Positions 3,067 to 53,916 are shown, numbered from the stretch's first letter. The stretch is DNA of 64,000 nucleotides from Bispira polyomma (GCA_965649765.1 OZ287758.1:56172001-56236000), one strand, 5' to 3'. Translations and numbers: made by a program. The notes: generated by a model from the letters alone, not told the origin.

Positions 3067-3878
3067 CTCCTAATACCACTCCTCACAAGGTCCTATTAAC
3101 TCTTTGTAACCTTGTTACCTACAAGAGTACCACTCCTGACAAGGTCTTTTTAAGCGTCCCGTAAGGGCGCCTGTTTGTATGCAGGAGAAAATTCATGTGG
3201 AATGGGCCGCCGGCTCCCGCCTTTTCTATTATTACCTACAAAAGTACCCCTCCTGACAAGGTCCTTTTAACTCTTTGTAACCATATTACCTACAATAGTA
3301 CCCCTCCTGACAAGGTCCTGTTAACTCTTTGTAACCTTGTTACCTACAATAGTACCACTCCTGACAAGGTCCTATTAATTCTTGGTAACCTTATTACCTA
3401 CAATAGTACCACTCCTGACAAGGTCCTATTAACTCTTGGTAACCTTGTTACCTACAATAGTACCACTCCTGACAAGGTCCTATTAACTCTTGGTAACCTT
3501 GTCACCTACAATAGTACTGGGCCGCGGTGGCCTAGGGGTTAGCAAGCATTGCGCTTCACAATCACGGGTCTCTCACCTCTGGGCGTTGTGAGTTCAAATC
3601 CCATCGATGCCCATGTGGGAAAGGTGGTCGTTCCTTACTGTTGGCCGCTGGTTTCAGTGCAGAACCTTGATCAACAGTATGCAGTGTTTCCTCCAGCATT
3701 TCCAACTACCCGTCCCAATATAACCTAAACAGGTACTAGAGTGGACGTTAAATATCCCAATTAAAAAAAAAACTACAATAGTACTCCTCTTGACAAGGTC
3801 CTATTAACTCCTAGTAACCTTGTTACCTACGATAGTACCACTCTTGACAAGGTTCTATTAACTCTTTGTAACCTTGTC
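3067..3878. repeat. 54-bp intronic minisatellite interrupted by a ~77-bp insert (3152-3228) and a SINE
   Basis: Unit TACCACTCCTGACAAGGTCCTATTAACTCTTGGTAACCTTGTTACCTACAATAG. Confidence 0.92.
3519..3772 (+). mobile_element. tRNA-derived SINE, full length, with 13-bp TSD
   Basis: GGGCCGCGGTGGCCTAG A-box-like head, GAGTTCAAATCCC B-box, oligo-A tail. TSD CTACAATAGTACT at 3506-3518 and 3773-3785. Five more copies of the family occur in the window. Confidence 0.92.
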
Positions 3879-12668: not shown

Positions 12669-12939
12669 AGGTGTAATGGCATCTGTTGTAGTTTGTCTTA
12701 TTTATATAAAACCAGTCCATACTTGCTGAAGAATATATACTTTCTGATATATGTTGCTTTCTCATTCTATCCCTTAATGATGTCAATTATCTCTCTTTTG
12801 TTTTAAAATCAAACATCTGAAAACTCCTGAGATCTCATTTCTTATTGATTTGCATTGTGTCATAACCCCAGGTTGAGTCTATATCAGTACATTTGCTTGA
12901 TCTCCAAAATAGAATGCCATAACCTTAATATCCTAGAAG

Positions 12940-15196
12940 CTGATGATTTTAACAAATTATAAAATATTCGAAAGAATCAAAAGAATGGTCTTATGATAAG
13001 GGCTTGCGCACAATGGCTAAGTGAGGGGAAAAGACCTACCAAATGTTTTTGTTCCCTAGAAAAGCTCTACTCCACAGAAAAAAACTATAAAGAAAATAGT
13101 TAAAGACACTGGAAAAACTATAATCAAAAAGTGATTTTGAAAGAAGTAAGAAATTTTTATGAAAACTTGTTCAGAAACAGTGACTCAGAAATTACAGAAA
13201 CTTAGATATTTTTAACGCTCTTTCTGGTTTACAAAAATTAACTGAAGAGGACTCCAATTGCCTTGAAGGTTGTTTAACCATTGACGAAATTGGCAATGCA
13301 TTAAAATACACGAGCCAGAGAAGTCATAGATGGGTTTTCATCCAAATTTTATAAAGTATTTTAGACGGTGTATAATTTGTTGTTTGCCAAAGTGGGACAA
13401 GCCAAGACAAATCCAAAAGAATTGGCGACCTATCTCACTACTATCAGTAGTCTACAAGATCTCATCTGCCCTGGCCTCAAGTTTTGCACAAAATAATTAG
13501 CAATACACAGTCAGGCTTCATGACTGATTGGTTTATCAGTGAAAATACAAGAATAATTATGATATTATGCATTATACCCAATACAAACAAATTCTTGGCT
13601 TATTAATGCTGGTTGATTTTCAAAAGGCTTTTGATACTGTGTCTTGGAAATTTCTCTACACCATTTTAAATTTTCTGGGTTTCAAGCAGAAATTTTGTAA
13701 ATGGATCAAGGTGCTCAATACAAATGTAAAAGCTGCAATATGGTGTATTATCTGTGGAGGGGGGGGGGGGGGGGGCAACTTCTTACAGGAATTTTTTTTT
13801 CTTTAGAACTAGATTCTATGATTCAGTTTAATTACAATCCTATGATACAAAACCTACAAAAATTGTTTAATGTATGGAATCAAAGACTTCTGACCCCCAT
13901 CAGAAAAATAGCAGTTGTAAAAAGTCTGGCATTATCAAAGCTAATTCATCTGTTCCTTGTATTGCCTACACCAGATAAAAAATTTTTCAAAAAGATAGAA
14001 AGTATGTTCTATAAATTTATTTGGAGTGGCAAACCGGACAAAATAAAAAGGACAATTATGGTTAAACATAACCTCACAGGTAGCCTAAATATATGATTGA
14101 TTTATTTGAATTTGTCTCTGCTTTGAAAATAACATGGATCCGAAGATTATATGTTAATCCTGGAGCACCTTGGGGTAAGGTGGCTACACACTATCTTGGT
14201 TAAGTTAGTAAGACTATTCTACTTGGATCTTGCTGAAAAGCTTTCTAGGAAAATAACAAATTTTGGGCATACACTTTATACAGCTGGGAAAGTTTGCTAA
14301 AAAAAGACCAGTAAAGACTCTCAGTGATGCAATGTCTGAATCACTTTGAAGTAATCCAAAAATATCAAAAGCAGAGATCTTTCTATCAGTCTGGTTTAAT
14401 AAAGGTATAATTTCAGTAGCTGATATCGTTAATGCGAAAGGGGACTGCATATCTCAAAGAGAATTGACTAAGTTTTATAATATTAGAATCAACTTTTTGG
14501 AATATTATAAAATTACAACATGCGTAAAAGTCTTTCTAAATAAGTTTAAAATGAAATGAAAGAAACACCAAAAACCTGTTTACCCTTGTCAGGTCAAAAT
14601 TTTGTATAATCCTTAAAAAGGCAGCAAAGATTTCTATGCTACTTTGAAAAATCACTTGAATGAGAGTCACAATACATCTCTGTCATACTGGGAAGAATCA
14701 CTAGGTATTAGTTTATCAGAAATCACTTCGAAACAGATATTTAGAATATGCAGTACTCTACAGAATCTTAGGTACCAATGACCTCTTATTGAAAATAAAA
14801 CGTCATATAAGTGGCATGTGCAATTTTCGCAATCATTATATAGAAACGGTCATGTATCTATTTGTAGAGTGTGGCATTGTAAAACAGTTTTGGTCTTAAC
14901 TTGAACTGAATTTGCAAATTAAGCTGGGGATCGAATTAACTGTTAATTCCTCTTTTATAATATTAGGTGTTCCAAATTTCAACTGCCTGACTATTCCAAT
15001 AAATACTATTTACCTTGCAGCAAAAATGTACATCTTTAAAACGACAAGAAAAAAATGCGTATATATGCCCTAATGCGTATATATCTGTACATAGAACATT
15101 AGAAATAATTCAGTGGACAATAGTCAATAGACGAACATGTGAACAATATTCAAAGTAGTGGAATAGGAGTAATGATATCTAATAATGTCAAGAAGG
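12940..15196 (+). mobile_element. Decayed L1/Tx1-clade LINE ORF2 fragment, RT core missing at the G-tract
   Basis: W.SEGKRPTK.F, DFQKAFDTVSWKFL, KSLALSKLIH, FIWSGKPDKIKR and a C-terminal Cys/His knuckle C..(R)..IETV.HLFVEC. Many stops and frameshifts. Confidence 0.88.
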
Positions 15197-18197: not shown

Positions 18198-19421
18198 TTC
18201 AGTCTTTACCTGTTTCATGGATGCTTCTAAAGCTTTTGAACGAATAACATATGACAAGTTATTTGAAAAGTTACAAAAACGAGGTAACCCAGTAGTTATT
18301 ACTCGTATCATATATTATTGGTATACTATGCAGAATGTTTGTATTCGCTGTGATATAGTAAACTTGTAAGTTGAAAGCAACATTAAACCAAAGTTAAACT
18401 AAATTTATATGTTGTTGTTTTTTATCTTAAGGTTTGAGTTTTTTTTCCGTTTAGACCCATCACATTTATAAGCATAGCTGTATTAGAAAGTTATCATAAG
18501 AAAAGCTATGGCCCCATTTTTGTCATTGTACCAGAATTAGGCATGGTTTTGCAACCAAGAGGTACCTATTAAACCATTAGGCTTCACTCCATTAACACTT
18601 TAACAGGTAAAGTATCAAAGGTAATATCACCAGTCATTTGCAGTATACAGCCACACTTGATGATTATCCTGTTTTTGTCAAAATAAGAAACTTTGTTTCT
18701 GATGCGCTTTAGTCTTCTGAAAAATTATGTTATGCAGATTTATTTAAAACTGACCATTAACAAAAGGCTTCTTTAAACTACATGAATTAAGTTGTTTGAC
18801 AACATATAACACCAGGGCCACGTTGTACATACATAACATTTCTAAAAACATTATTAAAAGCAACAGTCACTTTGTTCATAACAGATTTTGTATAGTTCAT
18901 CCACAACTGAGAATTTGAATTGGGATATTTAACGTCCACTCTAGTACCTGTTTAGGTTATATTGGGACAGTTAGTTGGAAACGCTGTAGGAAACACTGCA
19001 TACAGTTGATTAAGAGTCTACACTGAAAACCAGTAGCCCACAGTCAGGCACTACCACCTTTCCCACATAGGCATCGACGGGAGTCGAACCCACGCCAGCC
19101 GATCCCAGAGGTGAGAGACTAGGGATTGTGAAGCGCAATAATATAACTATGTCATCAACATACATTATGTGATTTGTTAAATATACAAAACACAAATGGT
19201 GATGGAATTCCTCCTTGAAGTACACGATTTTGAATTTTATAGGAGGAAGTTCAGTTACTCCAGCGAATACAAACAGTCTGCATAATATACCAATAATATT
19301 TGATACGAGTAATAACTACTTACTGTACTTGGGTACCCTATTTTTGTTATTTTTTCAAATTTCTTGTCATATCATTCTATCAAAAGCTTTAGAGGCATCC
19401 ATGAAACAGCAAAAGACTGAA
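18198..19421. repeat. Inverted pair of ~155-bp LINE RT fragments (18198-18350 + and 19261-19421 -)
   Basis: Both arms encode FMDASKAF(D/E)R, a non-LTR RT motif, and share the same end points (TTCAGTCTTT...TATTCGCTG). Confidence 0.8.
18914..19139 (-). mobile_element. tRNA-derived SINE, 5'-truncated copy
   Basis: Reverse complement aligns with 3519-3772 from the tail up to ATTGCGCTTCACAATC. Confidence 0.88.
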
Positions 19422-24455: not shown

Positions 24456-26789
24456 ATCTACTCAATCCTCTACTTAATTCTGTACTCAATTAATAATTAT
24501 CAATGTGCTCTTTGGGGAAAAAATTCTCAAGTGTCTGGATCATGTGTCTTGTGATCTTTACAGTCGGGATGGCCAGTACGGGTGATCTTTACAACCCGGG
24601 AGAGGAGATGGTTAATCCAGTTGTCACTCACCTGGGCCCCTGTTAAACGTGGCAATCATACTGGAATCGTTGTGTCCCTAAAGATCATAGGGAGTGTAGC
24701 TCCGGAGAATCAGGATCATTTTTAACAATTTAAAGTATTTCCTGTCCTAGATCATAATCCGCGTATCACGGCAGGTGGTCTAGAGGATTCAGCAGGGTGC
24801 CACTAGGATCGTAAAAATCAGGGCTGCTCCTGATAGATCTTCACAGTGGAACAGCGCCATAACAAACAACCATGCAGTAAGCAAACAGTCCAGTGGTAAA
24901 CAAATAAGTGAAAGCAAAAGGTCAAGAGGTCGTACTGGTAAAAACTCATACGTAAAGTCAACAATAACAAGCGTAAACACTTAAAACCTTTTTGTGCATA
25001 TTTCATAACTACAACTTAATATTAGTAGGGTTATAATAGCATTTAACATTTACCTAACCAATGGAATATTAGCAAACTAATAAACATCAAAGTGAAAGTT
25101 TATAAAAAAATATGTCTTGTACCATAACAATCGACATCACTCAAGGCATTATACTATACCCTATTGTATTTTTGATTACAATAGATTGGGTTATGAAAAA
25201 AACAATTGCAGAAGCAGAGAGGAATACAATGGGAACTTTTCAACCAACTAGAAAACCTCGATTTCCCCAGCTTTGCACATCAACACCTCCAAGGTAGGGG
25301 TGATAAAACAGATAAAATTGAAGAAATGAACATATAATCAGAAACAACTACAGGATTAAAAATTGAGGGGAAAGTTCTCAACAACACCAACAAATTCACA
25401 AATCTTTTAAAGATTATGGTTCCGAAGATAACATTCGATCAAGACTAAACAAAACCAGTACTGCCTTCAGTAGTTTAACAATAAGTATAATCTCAGAACC
25501 AAATTTACAACAGCAATGTGAAGTCAGTACTACTCTTAGGAGCAAAAACATGGAGTGTTTAAAAATTAAATGGATAACATCAATGCATGCCACAATAAAT
25601 ATCTAACAGAGCAAATTTTTTGGCCAACCATCAAACTTAATGAAGATTAATACGAAAAAACAAATGGCCAACCATCATACTTAATAAAGATTAATATAAA
25701 AAACACATTTGTTTTAAACACGTAATAAAGAGAAGGCTTGAAATGGTTGGAATAGAAAGCGTATGAACTCCAATAGGGCACTTAGATGGACACCACCAGG
25801 GACAAGGCGACCAGTAGACCTAATGCTACATAGAGGAAAACTGAAGTAGCTGAATGATGTGAACAAATCCTGAGAGGAGCAGAAATGCTAGCCAAAAACA
25901 GGACTGTGTGGAGAAAGTTTGCAGGTGAGACGTGATACTTCACCATGAAGTAAAAAGCATAACTAAGCAAGAATTTCTTAAAAATTGTCAATTAGTTACT
26001 TTTTATTCCAGCTAAACTTTCCATTTTTACAGTATCTTACTGAAATGTCATAAGTGTGAAATGTATGAAAAGAAAATCGGGCAATCAAATTTAGGTACAA
26101 AAACAAGAACTTCATAAGGCACTTATGTCCTTGCCCCACAAAAGAGTTGTTTACATTTAACTTTATAAATTTGTTCAAATTAGTGTTTAGTCTCTGTCTC
26201 TTTAATAATTTTTGACAGAAAATACAGTGTGCAAATATATATATTCAAGTCTACTTATGAACATTGATAGTGATGCTTCAATGAGACACTCAATCAATGG
26301 CAATTTAATTTTATCCGCCTAGTCGATTAATTACCTTTACAGAGATGGGATTTCTCATGTGAAAACCAATTGAGCTAAACATTATCCTTGGGGCAGATAA
26401 TGGCAGACATGACATTGCACTATTCAGTTGATTATACTAAGACCCTACACTTTACATTAAAGTTATAAACCGGCCAGGACATACATAAAGAGAGACAGAA
26501 AACATTCAAGGACAATAATGAAAACAATAATACCAAGATTTATTCAAATATATGAACAATCACTAATAACAATGATTTTTTTGTTTGGTTTTTTGTTAAA
26601 AGGCATTTTATTTACCATTTTTGTACATATTTGCTACCATTCCTTATTGGTAAAGTCTTACAATATATCTCATTAGTACACAGTATGAGTTGTAGTATAT
26701 ACATGTATTACATAAAGATGAGATTGGTACACATTATTTTGCAGATTAACAATAATTACCTCATAAATTCCTTTTAACGCAAAATATTA

Positions 26790-27527: not shown

Positions 27528-27852
27528 TATATATTTAATGCTTTGAAAAAGCTGGTTATTAAGCTTTCTTGTTCAATAATATAATATTTTACATATTCAG
27601 TTTCGTTAATAACGTGGCAAACACAACCATATTTTCTCAAATTTTTATTACACATTTTAAATTTGCATAGGTGATTCTGCTTTTAACCTCAGTTGACCTT
27701 GATATTCCCCATAAAATGTTTTTCAGTTACCAGTCTTTATTCAAAAGAAGTCAATATAAATATACCATACAGTTAACATGTACAAACTCTAACAATGCAT
27801 GTTACAATTTAGTAATGTACAGAAAACAAAACATATCATGAATAAATATTTA

Positions 27853-28099: not shown

Positions 28100-29535
28100 A
28101 TATCTCTATGTTGTAATACATTTGAAATATTGTACAGATAATTACCTAATTTTTTACAGTTTAATACTTTGCATATAAATATTCAAAAATATTTAATTGC
28201 GCATTCTTTCTAGAATGTTAATGTTAAATATACTATGTTGTGGTAATGTAGATGACATTTAAAGGAATATTTGGTACAACAAATTTCTAATCACCAAAAA
28301 TAATGGTACCAGGAAAAATATCAATATTTTTATCTATTGATCTTCTAAGCCATATTTTGATGTTCTTCCAAAAGTTAATGTTTTTTACCAGGAGGCAAAT
28401 AAATGTAAGATTTTTGCTGATTACAGAAAGAACATTTATAACTTGAGATTGATTTGGTGCAGAAAATACTTTATACCTAATAATCTGTATTTAATTTTAT
28501 ATTAGAACCAGTATTATCCTGAATAGGAGTAAAGATTATTTCATGTATTTTTTCAATTAATTTGGTATGTTGTTATCATCAGCTCTCTCTCCCAATTGTT
28601 AAGATATTTTACTTGGTCAGTTCCTTCATCCACATTCAAAACACGATAAAAATCTTGACCTCTTTTTGATTTAATTAATAAGTGAATATGATTGAGGAGG
28701 TATCGTCTTTGATTAAGATATTTTGACAAATCAATACTTTTCAGGAGAAGAGTGCATCCTGTGGTATGTTAGGAAGTTCACCGATGCACTCAAATACTGC
28801 TTCATGTTGTGCCAGATCATTAAAATTCATTTATTTGTGGTACGATCAGCAGGTGAAACAATTCCCTTTTGGTATAACTGTGGAACAAAAAAGTTAGTTT
28901 TTGAGATACTTTGATTGTACTATAGTGGTCCATAAAGTCTTTCATGAGTTTTATCAATTTATGAGAGCTTTTTTATGACATTCCTCCATGATGCAAGGAC
29001 TCCTTTCCAAAATTAGTTTTCCGTTCTTTGAGCAACTGATAAAGACCACTGAGATAAGATATAGAACTATATCAACTGAATTTAGATTAAAATGAACTAG
29101 GTAGATCCAATAAGTTCCATGGTTTAAATACAATTGACAAAGCCAACATACTTTACTAGAGCAGTTGGGATCTATCATTTTCAATCGTCCTTGTAAGTAT
29201 CCCTGGGATTACTTAAATGGAGATCAAGAGAGATAAGACTGAAGACTGACTGTATTTTGTATTCAAAATTGTATTTTGTATTCAAAATTGTATTTTGTAT
29301 TCAAAATTGTTCAAAATTGCTTTTTAGCAAAATTGCAACCCCTCGTGCATTGAACCTTTGACCATTTAACATGCATTCACCCTACCAAATTTATTTGATT
29401 GATTTCACATTTGTGTCCAACAAATGTGTATTATTTTTTGTGTGTAAATTTTCTAAAAAATGTAAAACATCTGTTCTTTTAATGTAACTTAAGCCATGAC
29501 AGTTTACTGACAACATCTTAAGATTATCTCCAATA
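28100..29535 (-). mobile_element. Second L1/Tx1-clade LINE, ORF2 remnant (endonuclease start joined to the 3' region; RT deleted)
   Basis: The minus strand gives LKMLSVNCHGL...ARGVAILL (APE endonuclease N-terminus), then GRLKMID and a C-terminal L1-like region. A 19-bp repeat (TGTATTTTGTATTCAAAAT)n sits at the deletion junction. Confidence 0.75.
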
Positions 29536-30289
29536 ATAATATTCCTGAATGATCTAATTCTCCATTGACAGCATTGTGGCAAAATAAGAATTTACCTCGA
29601 AGTACAAGCATTTAATGTGGTTTGTTTCACATGAAATAACAGAAAATAATATTTAAGAAAATACACTTAAAATACACAAATAGACACATAAGAAAACAAA
29701 GCTATGAAGACACATAAAATGGAGAGAATACCATAAACCATGTCTGCTCACCAATTATCAGTTTTCAAATATTCTTTGGGTATAATTATTTAAAAAAATA
29801 CCTTTATAAATCAATTCATATAATTTGCAATTATTGAGTGTCTATTTACCCTTTAAATCTTTAAATCTATTCTATCTTGATAGGATTAGCTATACTATCT
29901 AAAAAGAAATTTTCATAGAAAGTTAAACCCTGTTTAATCAAATCTCAAGGGATGACAATACGTATTATTACATAAGCAAACGTTGCATTTGAACAGGGTA
30001 GAATGTAGTATACATCATAAATTCCATTCTACTTAATAGGCCAATTAACCTAACAGACAGAGTTTGACTTGAATAACATTTGGCATAATTTTTGTTTAAT
30101 ATTTTATCCAGTATTAATAATACTTAAAATTCTGGTAAGACAATATATTTGATCCAATAATTATTAATCATTAAAACACTATAAAATACATCATATAACT
30201 ATTGTTTAACTTATATTATACCCAATGTTCATTATGCTTAAAGCTACAGTAAGCCAATGTTAAATTCATCATATATTTTATCTCATATT

Positions 30290-31530
30290 TCAAATGCTTA
30301 AAATTCTATCAAAACAACTTCCTAAACGATAGGCATCAATATTATGCTCATCTCTGGCAACACGCACATCCATACAAACTGCCTTCAGGGCTAGAATGAC
30401 ATCACCTTGGCAGGTCATATCTACCACATGGCCTTGAAAAGTACTTCCTAAGTATGACTTGGGTGGTGCTGACGATACTTTTAACTCCAGTGCTCTGTCT
30501 GACACAATCAAGTTGGTATCCTGAACGTTATCCTTTCTGTGTTCTATCATATGGTCATTCACAAGCAATTTATTTATAAATCACCTTGTCTTCTGCTGTT
30601 TCTGTTTGGCATCACAAAATACAGGCATGAGTTTTTGCTTGCGACTCTGCATTTCATTTGGAAGTTGCTCGCCAACTCCAAAGCGTTTTGTTTTATCCAA
30701 GTTTCCTACTATAGGTCTTGACTTGTGTTTAATCTTTTCCCCAATCTTTCAACTTGGTCAAAGGTAATAGATAGTATATACTGTGTTTGTATTTTTAGTT
30801 CATCTCTCATAAAGCTAGTTAAAAGTTCTTTGGTTGCTTCATCCGTTTATTTGGACACTTGTTAAATGTTAAAAAACTCAAAATTGCTCTGGCTTGAATT
30901 TGAAGGAAATCTTCTTTTAAATATTCTATATCCTTCTCGTTTTTGGCAGGTTGACCTTTAAATTAACTGACATTTTTACTTTTGAGTTGATCTAATTCCT
31001 GAGCTTGACCCTGCTGTGGGATTCAACATTCTTCGGTTGCATATAACGTCTTTCTATTTTGTCTGTATACTGTTGTTTATCAAATCTTTCATATCCAATG
31101 CTTTTTTTAACTTATCAAGGTATTTTGACAACTACTGCTTTATGATTTCCAACGGGGCCGCGGTGGCCTAGTGCTTAGCAAGCATTGTGCTTCACAATCA
31201 CTGGTCTCTCACCTCTGGGCGGCGTGAGTTCGAATCCTGTCGATGCCTATGTGGGAAAGGTGGTTGTTCCTTACTGTGGGCCGCTGGTTTCAGTGCAGAA
31301 CCTTGATCAACTGTATGCAGTGTTTCCTCCAGCATTTCCAACTACCCATCCCAATATAACCTAAACAGGTACTAGAGTGGACCTTAAATATTCCAATTAA
31401 AAAAAAAAAATTAAGATTTTCATCAGTATACCCATGTTAGTATCCAATGTCTCTTTAAAGGTCTCCAGCCCTTTTGACTCTCCTTGATTTTATTTAAGAT
31501 GTCCATATACTTAGAACCGTCCATCATGAA
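30290..31530 (-). pseudogene. LINE ORF1-like remnant (RRM/CTD-like) with a C-terminal IMPACT/YigZ (UPF0029)-like domain; SINE inserted
   Basis: The minus strand reads ITFDQVERLG..SRPIV..FGVGEQLPNEMQSRKQKLMPVF..AK....NKLLVND (ORF1-type), then continues in the same frame into SYLGSTFQGHVV....DVILALKAV..DVRVARDEHNIDAYRL (IMPACT-type STFQ.H...HNI.AYR). Confidence 0.7.
31154..31410 (+). mobile_element. tRNA-derived SINE, full length
   Basis: Same family as 3519-3772, with A/B boxes, an A-tail and a degenerate TSD (TTATGATTTCCAAC / TTAAGATTTTCATC). Confidence 0.9.
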
Positions 31531-31798: not shown

Positions 31799-32439
31799 CT
31801 AAGGAGTCTGATGTTGGTCAGACTTCAGTTTCTTCTTCATAGTGGTAGAGGCAGCTGATTCATACTTAGAATTCAGAGTGTCTTTGATTTCCTTAAATTC
31901 ACTTGGTGACAGGTGTGTTTTCATTTCTGCTAGGATTGCCTGGATGTCAGCTTTAAGTCCAGTGTATTTAACATTGAGCTCTTCCACCCAATGTAGAGTC
32001 AAGTCCCTTCTGCATTGGTTAACAATTTGAGTCCATTTGGTCTTGAAACTCTCATTGGTGGAAATAGGGGAGTACTCTTCATTAAACACTGCGAGGGAGA
32101 TCTTCCTTCCTTCAGGTTGTGTTTGATGGAGTGAAAACTAGCTGCATTTTTAATTTTTTTCTGAATAAGTTTTTAGCCCTCAGGTAGAGAGGCTTGGTTT
32201 GTGCTAGGTATTTATCTCTGCTAGTGATGTTTCATTCACTGGAAGGACATTCTTTTGGTGCCCTTGGTGGAGGACTGAGTTGTTTGTTTGAGCTTGTTCG
32301 ACACATCCTCTAATAGGGAGAGGGTCTCGCTGATAAAATTGGCGGCTGGTAATGGTGCACCAGTGGTAGGGGTGTTGAATGCTGTTGAGGAGTCCACTTC
32401 TGGGTGGTTTAAAGCAGAATTCAAGGCAGTTTCACTCAC
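31799..32439 (-). pseudogene. Retroelement-derived helical ORF remnant, possibly a Penelope-like N-terminal region
   Basis: FKTKWTQIVNQCRRDLTL resembles the W..I.N.C..DL motif of Penelope/Neptune-type ORF N-termini. Broken by a stop and a frameshift; no RT follows. Confidence 0.4.
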
Positions 32440-33249
32440 TCATAGTGACCCAATGTAAAATTAGTCATTGTCGGTGATTTACTTTAAATCATTGACGCCA
32501 AGTACTTTATTCTACTTAAAACCACAGTTTACCTATATATATTCTGGACACTAATTATATAAGCAAAAGATATTGCATTTTCAAACAAGGCATTCTAGTC
32601 TGGTTGACGATTTATAAGTCCAACTATTGGATAGTTTGTGAAAGGTATCTTTTGTAGAATTAGATAACAGTCTGGCTAATGTCCTGGCCAGTTCATAACT
32701 TTTAATATAAAGTTTACTTTTAGGGTCTGAGTATAATTAACTGAGTAGTGTTGTGTCATGTTTGGCATTATCTGTCACAAGGATAACTTTTGGCTCAATT
32801 TGTTTTCACATCTGAAATCCCATCTCCGTTAAATCTATTAATCCACTAGGTGGATAAAACTTAATTGCCATTGATATAGGGTGTCTCTTCATAACCAGAC
32901 TTAAATTTATATACTTGCATGCTATAATATCTATTAAAAATAATTTAACAGACATAGAGTGATTAAACACTAATATGAACTAATTTATAAAGTTCCTATA
33001 GTTTTCAAAATTACTGATGTTCATAAAACTGATTGCCAGATCCTTTTAGTGATACAATACATTAAACACTTGTGACATTTGCCAGATCCTTTTAGTGATA
33101 CAATACATTAAACACCTGTGACATTTGAGCAAGATACTGTAGAAATTGATAGTTTAAGTGGAATAAAATGTCAGTAATTAACAATTTTAAAGTAATTCTT
33201 ACTTAGTTGATTGGGGGTGGGGGGTGGGGGGGGGTGGGGGGGGGGGGGG

Positions 33250-34674
33250 CAACTTCTTACAGGAATTTTTTTTTCTTTAGAACTAGATTCTATGATTCAG
33301 TTTAATTACAATCCTATGATACAAAACCTAGAAAAATTGTTTAATGTATGGAATCAAAGACTTCTGACCCCCATCAGAAAAATAGCAGTTGTAAAAAGTC
33401 TGGCATTATCAAAGCTAATTCATCTGTTCCTTGTATTGCCTACACCAGATAAAAAATTTTTCAAAAAGATAGAAAGTATGTTCTATAAATTTATTTGGAG
33501 TGGCAAACCGGACAAAATAAAAAGGACAATTATGGTTAAACATAACCTCACAGGTAGCCTAAATATATGATTGATTTATTTGAATTTGTCTCTGCTTTGA
33601 AAATAACATGGATCCGAAGATTATATGTTAATCCTGGAGCACCTTGGGGTAAGGTGGCTACACACTATCTTGGTTCAGTTAGTAAGACTATTCTACTTGG
33701 ATCTTGCTGAAAAGCTTTCTAGGAAAATAAATAACAAATTTTGGGCATACACTTTATACAGCTGGGAAAGTTTGCTAAAAAAAGACCAGTAAAGACTCTC
33801 AGTGATGCAATGTCTGAATCACTTTGGAGTAATCCAAAAATATCAAAAGCAGAGATCTTTCTATCAGTCTGGTTTAATAAAGGTATAATTTCAGTAGCTG
33901 ATATCATTAATGCGAAAGGGGACTGCATATCTCAAAGAGAATTGACTAAGTTTTATAATATTAGAATCAACTTTTTGGAATATTATAAAATTACAACATG
34001 CGTAAAAGTCTTTCTAAATAAGTTTAAAATGAAATGAAAGAAACACCAAAAACCTGTTTACCCTTGTCAGGTCAAAATTTTGTGTAATCCTTAAAAAGGC
34101 AGCAAAGATTTCTATGCTACTTTGAAAAATCACTTGAATGAGAGTCACAATACATCTCTGTCATACTGGGAAGAATCACTAGGTATTAGTTTATCAGAAA
34201 TCACTTCGAAACAGATATTTAGAATATGCAGTACTCTACAGAATCTTAGGTACCAATGACCTCTTATTGAAAATAAAACGTCATATAAGTGGCATGTGCA
34301 ATTTTCGCAATCATTATATAGAAACGGTCATGCATCTATTTGTAGAGTGTGGCATTGTAAAACAGTTTTGGTCTGAACTTAAACTGAATTTGCAAATCAA
34401 GCTGGGGATCAAATTAACTGTTAATTCCTCTTCTTTAATATTAGGTGTTCCAAATTTCAACTGCCTGACTATTCCAATAAATACTATTTACCTTGCAGCA
34501 AAAATGTACATCTTTAAAATGACAAGAAAAAAATGCGTATATATGCCCTAATGCGTATATATCTGTACATAGAACATTAGAAATAATTCAGTGGACAATA
34601 GTCAATAGACGAACATGTGAACAATATTCAAAGTAGTGGAATAGGAGTAATGATATCTAATAATGTCAAGAAGG
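33250..34674 (+). mobile_element. L1/Tx1 3' fragment (unit 2 copy, lacks everything upstream of the G-tract)
   Basis: Collinear with 13776-15196. Confidence 0.88.
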
Positions 34675-47317: not shown

Positions 47318-50300
47318 ATATCTCTATGTTGTAATACATTTGAAATATTGTACAGATAATTACCTAATTTTTTACAGTTTAATACTTTGCATATAAATAT
47401 TCAAAAATATTTAATTGCGCATTCTTTCTAGAATGTTAATGTTAAATATACTATGTTGTGGTAATGTAGATGACATTTAAAGGAATATTTGGTACAACAA
47501 ATTTCTAATCACCAAAAATAATGGTACCAGGAAAAATATCAATATTTTTATCTATTGATCTTCTAAGCCATATTTTGATGTTCTTCCAAAAGTTAATGTT
47601 TTTTACCAGGAGGCAAATAAATGTAAGATTTTTGCTGATTACAGAAAGAACATTTATAACTTGAGATTGATTTGGTGCAGAAAATACTTTATACCTAATA
47701 ATCTGTATTTAATTTTATATTAGAACCAGTATTATCCTGAATAGGAGTAAAGATTATTTCATGTATTTTTTCAATTAATTTGGTATGTTGTTATCATCAG
47801 CTCTCTCTCCCAATTGTTAAGATATTTTACTTGGTCAGTTCCTTCATCCACATTCAAAACACGATAAAAATCTTGACCTCTTTTTGATTTAATTAATAAG
47901 TGAATATGATTGAGGAGGTATCGTCTTTGATTAAGATATTTTGACAAATCAATACTTTTCAGGAGAAGAGTGCATCCTGTGGTATGTTAGGAAGTTCACC
48001 GATGCACTCAAATACTGCTTCATGTTGTGCCAGATCATTAAAATTCATTTATTTGTGGTACGATCAGCAGGTGAAACAATTCCCTTTTGGTATAACTGTG
48101 GAACAAAAAAGTTAGTTTTTGAGATACTTTGATTGTACTATAGTGGTCCATAAAGTCTTTCATGAGTTTTATCAATTTATGAGAGCTTTTTTATGACATT
48201 CCTCCATGATGCAAGGACTCCTTTCCAAAATTAGTTTTCCGTTCTTTGAGCAACTGATAAAGACCACTGAGATAAGATATAGAACTATATCAACTGAATT
48301 TAGATTAAAATGAACTAGGTAGATCCAATAAGTTCCATGGTTTAAATACAATTGACAAAGCCAACATACTTTACTAGAGCAGTTGGGATCTATCATTTTC
48401 AATCGTCCTTGTAAGTATCCCTGGGATTACTTAAATGGAGATCAAGAGAGATAAGACTGAAGACTGACTGTATTTTGTATTCAAAATTGTATTTTGTATT
48501 CAAAATTGTATTTTGTATTCAAAATTGTATTTTGTATTCAAAATTGTTCAAAATTGCTTTTTAGCAAAATTGCAACCCCTCGTGCATTGAACCTTTGACC
48601 ATTTAACATGCATTCACCCTACCAAATTTATTTGATTGATTTCACATTTGTGTCCAACAAATGTGTATTATTTTTTGTGTGTAAATTTTCTAAAAAATGT
48701 AAAACATCTGTTCTTTTAATGTAACTTAAGCCATGACAGTTTACTGACAACATCTTAAGATTATCTCCAATAATAATATTCCTGAATGATCTAATTCTCC
48801 ATTGACAGCATTGTGGCAAAATAAGAATTTACCTCGAAGTACAAGCATTTAATGTGGTTTGTTTCACATGAAATAACAGAAAATAATATTTAAGAAAATA
48901 CACTTAAAATACACAAATAGACACATAAGAAAACAAAGCTATGAAGACACATAAAATGGAGAGAATACCATAAACCATGTCTGCTCACCAATTATCAGTT
49001 TTCAAATATTCTTTGGGTATAATTATTTAAAAAAATACCTTTATAAATCAATTCATATAATTTGCAATTATTGAGTGTCTATTTACCCTTTAAATCTTTA
49101 AATCTATTCTATCTTGATAGGATTAGCTATACTATCTAAAAAGAAATTTTCATAGAAAGTTAAACCCTGTTTAATCAAATCTCAAGGGATGACAATACGT
49201 ATTATTACATAAGCAAACGTTGCATTTGAACAGGGTAGAATGTAGTATACATCATAAATTCCATTCTACTTAATAGGCCAATTAACCTAACAGACAGAGT
49301 TTGACTTGAATAACATTTGGCATAATTTTTGTTTAATATTTTATCCAGTATTAATAATACTTAAAATTCTGGTAAGACAATATATTTGATCCAATAATTA
49401 TTAATCATTAAAACACTATAAAATACATCATATAACTATTGTTTAACTTATATTATACCCAATGTTCATTATGCTTAAAGCTACAGTAAGCCAATGTTAA
49501 ATTCATCATATATTTTATCTCATATTTCAAATGCTTAAAATTCTATCAAAACAACTTCCTAAACGATAGGCATCAATATTATGCTCATCTCTGGCAACAC
49601 GCACATCCATACAAACTGCCTTCAGGGCTAGAATGACATCACCTTGGCAGGTCATATCTACCACATGGCCTTGAAAAGTACTTCCTAAGTATGACTTGGG
49701 TGGTGCTGACGATACTTTTAACTCCAGTGCTCTGTCTGACACAATCAAGTTGGTATCCTGAACGTTATCCTTTCTGTGTTCTATCATATGGTCATTCACA
49801 AGCAATTTATTTATAAATCACCTTGTCTTCTGCTGTTTCTGTTTGGCATCACAAAATACAGGCATGAGTTTTTGCTTGCGACTCTGCATTTCATTTGGAA
49901 GTTGCTCGCCAACTCCAAAGCGTTTTGTTTTATCCAAGTTTCCTACTATAGGTCTTGACTTGTGTTTAATCTTTTCCCCAATCTTTCAACTTGGTCAAAG
50001 GTAATAGATAGTATATACTGTGTTTGTATTTTTAGTTCATCTCTCATAAAGCTAGTTAAAAGTTCTTTGGTTGCTTCATCCGTTTATTTGGACACTTGTT
50101 AAATGTTAAAAAACTCAAAATTGCTCTGGCTTGAATTTGAAGGAAATCTTCTTTTAAATATTCTATATCCTTCTCGTTTTTGGCAGGTTGACCTTTAAAT
50201 TAACTGACATTTTTACTTTTGAGTTGATCTAATTCCTGAGCTTGACCCTGCTGTGGGATTCAACATTCTTCGGTTGCATATAACGTCTTTCTATTTTGTC

Positions 50301-50767
50301 TGTATACTGTTGTTTATCAAATCTTTCATATCCAATGCTTTTTTTAACTTATCAAGGTATTTTGACAACTACTGCTTTATGATTTCCAACGGGGCCGCGG
50401 TGGCCTAGTGCTTAGCAAGCATTGTGCTTCACAATCACTGGTCTCTCACCTCTGGGCGGCGTGAGTTCGAATCCTGTCGATGCCTATGTGGGAAAGGTGG
50501 TTGTTCCTTACTGTGGGCCGCTGGTTTCAGTGCAGAACCTTGATCAACTGTATGCAGTGTTTCCTCCAGCATTTCCAACTACCCATCCCAATATAACCTA
50601 AACAGGTACTAGAGTGGACCTTAAATATTCCAATTAAAAAAAAAAAATTAAGATTTTCATCAGTATACCCATGTTAGTATCCAATGTCTCTTTAAAGGTC
50701 TCCAGCCCTTTTGACTCTCCTTGATTTTATTTAAGATGTCCATATACTTAGAACCGTCCATCATGAA
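47318..50767 (-). mobile_element. Minus-strand L1/Tx1 remnant with IMPACT-like ORF1, unit 2 copy
   Basis: ORF 49527-49805 is identical in translation to 30290-30568. Confidence 0.72.
50391..50647 (+). mobile_element. SINE, unit 2 copy
   Basis: Copy of 31154-31410. Confidence 0.9.
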
Positions 50768-52491: not shown

Positions 52492-53916
52492 CAACTTCTT
52501 ACAGGAATTTTTTTTTCTTTAGAACTAGATTCTATGATTCAGTTTAATTACAATCCTATGATACAAAACCTAGAAAAATTGTTTAATGTATGGAATCAAA
52601 GACTTCTGACCCCCATCAGAAAAATAGCAGTTGTAAAAAGTCTGGCATTATCAAAGCTAATTCATCTGTTCCTTGTATTGCCTACACCAGATAAAAAATT
52701 TTTCAAAAAGATAGAAAGTATGTTCTATAAATTTATTTGGAGTGGCAAACCGGACAAAATAAAAAGGACAATTATGGTTAAACATAACCTCACAGGTAGC
52801 CTAAATATATGATTGATTTATTTGAATTTGTCTCTGCTTTGAAAATAACATGGATCCGAAGATTATATGTTAATCCTGGAGCACCTTGGGGTAAGGTGGC
52901 TACACACTATCTTGGTTCAGTTAGTAAGACTATTCTACTTGGATCTTGCTGAAAAGCTTTCTAGGAAAATAAATAACAAATTTTGGGCATACACTTTATA
53001 CAGCTGGGAAAGTTTGCTAAAAAAAGACCAGTAAAGACTCTCAGTGATGCAATGTCTGAATCACTTTGGAGTAATCCAAAAATATCAAAAGCAGAGATCT
53101 TTCTATCAGTCTGGTTTAATAAAGGTATAATTTCAGTAGCTGATATCATTAATGCGAAAGGGGACTGCATATCTCAAAGAGAATTGACTAAGTTTTATAA
53201 TATTAGAATCAACTTTTTGGAATATTATAAAATTACAACATGCGTAAAAGTCTTTCTAAATAAGTTTAAAATGAAATGAAAGAAACACCAAAAACCTGTT
53301 TACCCTTGTCAGGTCAAAATTTTGTGTAATCCTTAAAAAGGCAGCAAAGATTTCTATGCTACTTTGAAAAATCACTTGAATGAGAGTCACAATACATCTC
53401 TGTCATACTGGGAAGAATCACTAGGTATTAGTTTATCAGAAATCACTTCGAAACAGATATTTAGAATATGCAGTACTCTACAGAATCTTAGGTACCAATG
53501 ACCTCTTATTGAAAATAAAACGTCATATAAGTGGCATGTGCAATTTTCGCAATCATTATATAGAAACGGTCATGCATCTATTTGTAGAGTGTGGCATTGT
53601 AAAACAGTTTTGGTCTGAACTTAAACTGAATTTGCAAATCAAGCTGGGGATCAAATTAACTGTTAATTCCTCTTCTTTAATATTAGGTGTTCCAAATTTC
53701 AACTGCCTGACTATTCCAATAAATACTATTTACCTTGCAGCAAAAATGTACATCTTTAAAATGACAAGAAAAAAATGCGTATATATGCCCTAATGCGTAT
53801 ATATCTGTACATAGAACATTAGAAATAATTCAGTGGACAATAGTCAATAGACGAACATGTGAACAATATTCAAAGTAGTGGAATAGGAGTAATGATATCT
53901 AATAATGTCAAGAAGG
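52492..53916 (+). mobile_element. L1/Tx1 3' fragment, unit 3 copy
   Basis: Copy of 33250-34674. Confidence 0.88.

Follow-up and report, generated by a model that had tools for sequence, protein, structure and literature searches.

An IMPACT (UPF0029) domain at the C-terminus of ORF1p in an L1/Tx1-group LINE lineage of Bispira polyomma

The 64,000-nucleotide stretch of Bispira polyomma DNA analysed here (the window) contains a defunct LINE that belongs to an L1/Tx1-group lineage. Pfam and fold matches in intact relatives showed that a UPF0029 (IMPACT) domain is fused to ORF1p in this lineage, as the initial annotation had proposed. We regard it as nearly certain that the following hold together: the arrangement coiled coil-RRM-CTD-IMPACT followed by a spacer and an ORF2 with endonuclease (EN) and reverse transcriptase (RT); hallmarks of target-primed insertion; a single ORF1 lineage bearing the domain; purifying selection on it; a NADAR domain in the corresponding slot of sister elements; and exchange of whole ORF1s.

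The window copy lies on the minus strand and is collinear with the dispersed family B (L041-L047). Its 5'-most recognisable ORF1 remnant (31411..31469, 85-88% nucleotide identity to L041 and L043) lies upstream of a SINE-like insertion on the plus strand (31152..31410), which interrupts ORF1, has a tRNA-type head and poly(A), and has copies of 85-93% identity at 3516-3772, 18914-19139 and elsewhere. The SINE-like repeat is about 250 bp long, the copy near 3519 is flanked by a 13-bp target duplication, and Rfam and ARAGORN gave no match for the insertion. The frameshifted coiled-coil region follows (30904..31151), collinear with family B and corresponding to the predicted helix H111-205 that forms the coiled coil in the intact ORF1 model. 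RRM, CTD and linker occupy 30479..30903, with frameshifts, small deletions and one stop (tblastn, 55-69% to the ORF1 of L041/L043). The N-terminal half of the IMPACT domain (30318..30478), in frame with the end of the CTD, was recognised from the alignment, from the junction relative to L042 and from the UPF0029 matches of intact relatives. Downstream were found the 3' part of the ORF1-ORF2 spacer (29562..30317, 75% nucleotide identity to the family B spacer and ORF2 start), the ORF2 start, with about 110 residues from the beginning of the APE endonuclease (29207..29561; tblastn, 64% to the L043 ORF2 N-terminus), and the decayed C-terminal third of ORF2, which follows the RT and includes the zinc-binding region (28179..29207; 83% nucleotide and 49-62% amino acid identity to L042/L044). 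A remnant of the ORF2 end or 3' region, set apart by an insertion (27554..27707, 77-80%), and a 3' UTR remnant (26655..26777, 81-82%) complete the element, both on the minus strand and both compared with family B at the nucleotide level.

The motifs quoted in the initial annotation all lie on the minus strand as placed. SRPIV, FGVGEQLP, RKQKLMP, KLLVND and GSTFQGH..HNIDAYRL share a frame, as had been described, but with a stop between the CTD pieces, and ITFDQVERLG is in a different frame from the rest. The APE endonuclease start LSVNCHGL...ARGVAILL was also found, beginning near 29513 on the minus strand. A deletion between 30318 and 30317, about 400-510 bp relative to L041-L044, took out the latter half of IMPACT together with some of the spacer, so that the inter-ORF spacer now continues directly from mid-IMPACT. 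At 29207 another deletion, of about 2.3 kb, eliminated RT completely and EN for the most part. The copy had been described as dead and ending before the DDGE motif. It indeed stops short of DDGE because of the first deletion, which is decay of the copy and not a short domain.

From 13756 to 64000 the window is a tandem segmental repeat with a period of about 19.24 kb and at least 2.6 units of 97.6-99.4% identity, which runs beyond the window and represents recent duplication or assembly redundancy. The copy previously reported at 47318..50767 (minus strand) is a copy of the dead element, with 99.4% identity, but it lies within the repeat (21547-44758 / 40787-64000) and therefore arose by segmental duplication and does not represent a separate insertion. 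Just beyond the window lies a third copy (L003). Remnants of another L1-group ORF2 were observed within the repeat unit at 12897-15052, 33265-34530 and 52498-53772 on the plus strand. Two short open frames of 111 and 74 aa lie upstream of the element at 31802-32458 (minus strand), and the 111-aa frame had no significant Pfam match.

None of the window fragments scanned matched UPF0029, Transposase_22 or EN models in Pfam, and the 96-aa frame at 30293-30580 had no UPF0029 match at E<=0.1. In contrast, all seven ORF1 pieces tested from other loci matched UPF0029 (E 4e-26 to 4e-16), so that the match predicted for this region was obtained in the relatives and not in the window fragment, and the window assignment follows from theirs. 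The 96-aa frame had at least 114 matches in its own 1.04-Gb genome (150 of 197 candidates scored); the fragment is therefore not a chance resemblance.

Intact relatives include the eight copies of family A (L031-L038), which are 98-99% identical and about 7.3 kb long. Their ORF1 encodes 495 aa from the first Met, and a 1292-aa ORF2 frame is present in L035 and L037. Seven of the eight copies share a common 5' start, the sequence passes into poly(A) at the 3' ends inspected, and target-site duplications of 13-18 bp were found in four of seven tested copies. A search with EN returned 26 full-length matches at >=97%, seven of them in 1292-aa open frames, and family A is therefore young. The flanks of the copies were unrelated, with no common target and no sign of target specificity, a trait of some Tx1 elements. 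No RNA match was listed among three runs of one study, which speaks neither for nor against expression. The IMPACT-bearing ORF1s were intronless, and many copies were found in the genome, as expected for a mobile multi-copy locus in the initial annotation. Family A ORF1 matched Pfam UPF0029 (PF01205) over the whole model (2-107 of 107; 91.5 bits against a cutoff of 27; E 4e-26). The AlphaFold model of this ORF1 had a mean pLDDT of 82, and above 90 in the IMPACT fold. Modelled residues 187-357 matched human L1 ORF1p (2yko/2w7a) with Z 11.6 over 162 residues. The modelled residues 375-495 matched 2cve (Z 16.8, 1.9 A, 112 aa) and 1vi7, which we take to be E. coli YigZ (Z 15.5, about 2 A), and yeast Yih1 ranked top in Foldseek. 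On the predicted structure, ORF1p is of type II, with a coiled coil, a single RRM and a CTD, and then a complete UPF0029 domain. Pfam Transposase_22 did not match ORF1. RWD (PF05773) was detected in none of the ORF1s scanned, and most cellular UPF0029 matches carry it. ORF2 contained the Pfam domains Exo_endo_phos, RVT_1 and zf-RVT and matched human L1 ORF2p at E 8e-112, but R2 only at 8e-25; by this likeness to L1 it is assigned to the L1/Tx1 group, the RT trees having been built without named Tx1 references.

The link between ORF1 and ORF2, previously drawn from position, was found in 75 of 77 loci, in which an L1-group EN or RT lies downstream on the same strand; two loci were without ORF2. 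The first 37 loci were picked partly for long open frames and the next 40 mostly in hit-list order, and some of the ORF2 matches are more than 3 kb away. RRM-CTD was present upstream of IMPACT in 64 of the 77 loci and missing in 13 (5' truncation). The ORF1-ORF2 spacer measured 0.7-1.5 kb and was long in most loci. Among 35 metagenome loci, eight had RRM-CTD and IMPACT, and an L1-type ORF2 followed ORF1-IMPACT on five metagenome contigs (L160-L163, L167). In a protein library clustered at 50%, both domains were present in 125 of the best 150 matches. Atlas matches scored 0.86-0.87, under the 0.9 level and of value as leads only, and were most often molluscan; one cluster was labelled a Bacteroidetes MAG, on a 1.8-kb contig that we take to be misbinned animal DNA.

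The host IMPACT gene is ordinary, with RWD present and the ancient domain spread across four exons. Phylogenetic comparison, which had been proposed as a check, placed the ORF1-fused domains in one clade separate from host IMPACT. In the 78-domain tree, built after 9 of 87 rows had been dropped as truncated, broken or redundant, a single branch (99/88) united all 50 ORF1-fused rows and excluded both the 13 rows from cellular eukaryotes (97/98) and the 15 from bacteria. A mixture-model tree of 39 rows recovered the same ORF1-fused branch (98/88). In AU tests on 122 columns, neither grouping of the LINE domains with the host domain (p 0.33) nor with animal IMPACT (p 0.37) was rejected. These sequence comparisons support a single old fusion of IMPACT to ORF1. 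The domain would have been captured once, long ago and without RWD, a spliced eukaryotic IMPACT RNA being the probable source. Stand-alone IMPACT-like proteins from bacteria (L077-L156), mostly Rhodobacteraceae, were also observed; they measure about 110-130 aa and have motifs resembling those of eukaryotes, and their genes are often located downstream of an M48 peptidase gene. The 60 of 149 flanking frames scanned belonged to mixed families, with Peptidase_M48 the commonest and no NADAR or RNA-repair link, so that this survey gave no functional hint for the IMPACT domain. One protein (P0181) contained three tandem UPF0029 domains of cellular type.

Twenty other L1-group loci, picked by EN, were examined: NADAR was located upstream in 12, none was found in 8, and IMPACT occurred in 0 of 20. 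Pfam confirmed NADAR in four of five frames tested (E to 2e-41). L232/L233 (2445-3770), L243, L248, L239 and others encode an L1-group type II ORF1p with a C-terminal NADAR, and L232 and L233 have long open ORF1 and ORF2 frames. An RRM-CTD tree separated 37 IMPACT-bearing from four NADAR-bearing ORF1s at 99/99. In the RT tree, the IMPACT elements L214 and L231 nested among NADAR elements, and they were collinear with L075 and L249 at 96-97%. With groups chosen after the trees had been seen, constraining all IMPACT RTs into one group was rejected (p 0.02), and families A and B with L039 and L040 formed an ORF1 clade (100/100), while a single RT clade for them was rejected (p 1e-92). Mosaic elements (L039, L219, L220, L229) were 93-95% identical to family A in ORF2 but only 65% in ORF1. 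These comparisons show that whole ORF1s were exchanged between RT lineages, including one into a NADAR lineage. Furthermore, in L158 (218-5252) and L159, from the same assembly and with ORF1s 67% alike, ORF1-IMPACT lies upstream of a non-L1 ORF2. This ORF2 is complete in L158 and represented by its start only in L159; its N-terminus carries a 2A-like motif (GDIExNPGP, of the general form GD(V/I)ExNPGP), and the RT is 24-27% identical to L1 types. A 2A-like motif has been reported in CR1, L2/Crack and Ingi elements (PMC3708506). Judged by motif and RT identity, the ORF2 of L158 and L159 is probably of CR1 type, and ORF1 probably moved across LINE superfamilies.

Codon models, earlier suggested as a further check, gave a low omega for the IMPACT domain (0.020-0.072; 0.033, 0.072 and 0.020 in three sets), with values of 0.06 in RRM-CTD and 0.07-0.08 in the coiled coil, and fixing omega at 1 for IMPACT cost 126-249 log units. 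Pairwise dS was undefined in 13 of 14 comparisons because synonymous sites were saturated, so omega shows constraint and not its magnitude. The domain is thus under purifying selection in these coding sequences, and such constraint is no proof of catalysis. Its best-kept residues are those of the pocket. In the 125 two-domain database proteins (numbering of family A ORF1p), H421 was conserved in 95%, D440 in 97%, D441 in 98%, E443 in 90%, R468 in 98%, R479 in 98% and S388 in 73%, with N in 20%. The LINE domains differ from cellular IMPACT at K387, K415, H452 and the aspartate of GPDRF, all of them invariant in the cellular proteins. Together with the replacement of S388 by N in a fifth, these changes mean that the domain may act on another substrate or have an altered activity or none. 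The average net charge of the LINE IMPACT domain across the 125 proteins is near zero and not basic, so that simple RNA binding is not favoured. In a divergent IMPACT subfamily (L060-L071, L076), RRHDGPNLG replaces RWYGG..LG, and H, DDGE and R are kept.

We favour, at a probability of about 0.45, the reading that the IMPACT domain is enzyme-like cargo on the RNA particle, guarding the element RNA or its translation. By comparison with human L1, ORF1p trimers would coat the element RNA, and this coat would bring many IMPACT pockets near the element RNA and near ribosomes. The pocket (S/H/D-D/E/R) would then bind or hydrolyse a substrate found on RNA or on the translation apparatus. The pocket residues are retained in the same slot where sister elements keep NADAR. 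A catalytic tetrad has been an idea for YigZ. NADAR would offer a parallel role, since it removes ADP-ribose from nucleic acids and has been described as an enzyme reversing guanine ADP-ribosylation (PMC11125620); the parallel is positional only. The invariant residues of Yih1 group on one face, and its function is given as unknown (PMC4503747); no activity was reported for any IMPACT/YigZ domain in the papers examined. A bolder version is more tentative: mollusc-type LINE ORF1p would have an exchangeable C-terminal enzyme slot, taken by NADAR or IMPACT, and the IMPACT-ORF1 cassette would travel between the L1 and CR1 superfamilies because the domain serves in counter-defence, as a hydrolase whose targets are modified RNA or stalled ribosomes. 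If this were true, the long-sought activity of IMPACT/YigZ would be revealed.

A possible, less probable role, close to the nucleic-acid or ribosome binding raised in the initial annotation, is tethering to ribosomes or RNA without catalysis, aiding cis-preference, RNP assembly or re-initiation at ORF2 across the 0.7-1.5 kb spacer. The long spacers at most loci are in keeping with it, as are the association of Yih1 with ribosomes (PMC7140605, PMC4503747) and the binding of mouse ORF1p to ribosomal proteins even after RNase (PMC10289378). However, the ribosome-binding region of Yih1 overlaps the RWD-linker part, which is missing from the element, while the strongest conservation in the LINE domain falls on the pocket and its charge is not that of a basic RNA-binding surface. 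A structural or targeting function of the domain, in oligomer contact or localisation and with a pocket that binds a small ligand, is unlikely. The confident fold prediction (pLDDT above 90) and the CR1/L2 esterase, an enzyme fold proposed to target membranes (PMC4120745), would fit such a module, but NADAR, with an unrelated fold, takes this position in sister families, which speaks against a specific structural contact.

Interference with the GCN1-GCN2 pathway had been raised as a function in the initial annotation, and a decoy for GCN1 that blocks GCN2 stress signalling would agree with the inhibition of GCN2 by cellular IMPACT/Yih1 (PMC4503747, PMC7140605) and with L1 bodies reported to counter translational inhibition (PMC10289378). 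PMC4503747 and PMC7140605 attribute GCN2 inhibition to RWD, which alone is enough, and RWD helix-3 mutants fail. Since RWD, required for GCN1 binding and GCN2 inhibition, is absent from every ORF1-type match and present in most cellular ones, this proposal is weak and the decoy quite unlikely. It is highly improbable that the segment lies outside the LINE, as a processed pseudogene of IMPACT or by chance proximity. The missing Pfam match of the window fragment alone and the AU results that keep grouping with host or animal IMPACT would be compatible with it, but the in-frame fusion recurs across many families with ORF2 attached, the layout is identical on metagenome contigs, and the Pfam matches, the low omega, the linkage to ORF2 and the two-domain database proteins refute it. 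The enzyme-like cargo reading remains the one we prefer.

No report of an IMPACT/UPF0029 domain in a LINE was found in the literature, in line with its absence from the ORF1 accessory domains listed in the initial annotation; Repbase entries and subscription papers, outside the search, may note it. None of the papers containing 'UPF0029' was on transposons, judged by title. The term had 0 occurrences in the main text of PMC5203782, PMC4120745, PMC10294476 and PMC12477816, 'impact' was likewise absent from that of PMC4120745, and 'UPF0029' occurs in two supplements of PMC5203782. The ancient domain of IMPACT ranges from bacteria to humans, with a function described as unknown. A selfish element retains it without RWD across many families and RT lineages; this RWD-less retention allows the domain's intrinsic role to be told apart from GCN2 regulation, with retrotransposition as a direct readout for testing it. 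IMPACT is also a new cargo for the ORF1p catalogue, and the elements include unambiguous exchanges of a whole ORF1, among them a transfer into a NADAR lineage and a probable one across superfamilies. ORF1 movement between unrelated ORF2 lineages was already known (PMC4120745).

The LINE domain shares 41-46% identity with animal IMPACT across the domain length, and shares the ancient-domain fold and motifs with eukaryotic IMPACT/Yih1 and bacterial YigZ (PF01205). Compared with these it is without RWD and without introns, forms its own clade and has several cellular invariants replaced. With human L1-type elements (L1/Tx1 group, 2yko), the IMPACT LINEs have in common the CC-RRM-CTD fold, an APE-RT-zf-RVT ORF2, poly(A) and 13-18 bp duplications, whereas they add a C-terminal UPF0029 domain of about 120 aa and a 0.7-1.5 kb spacer and have no Transposase_22 match. 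SGNH esterase and PHD domains are established accessory domains of LINE ORF1p, and the type IV ORF1s of CR1/L2 (SGNH esterase) and the PHD-bearing ORF1s likewise captured an accessory domain (PMC4120745); there the domain differs, and in the present elements a complete type II ORF1 has gained IMPACT. Tx1 families of Crassostrea gigas with NADAR in ORF1 are already in print (PMC12477816); they likewise carry an enzyme-fold cargo on ORF1, in a layout also present in this genome, but the fold is unrelated to IMPACT and the IMPACT- and NADAR-bearing ORF1s lie on opposite sides of the 99/99 branch.
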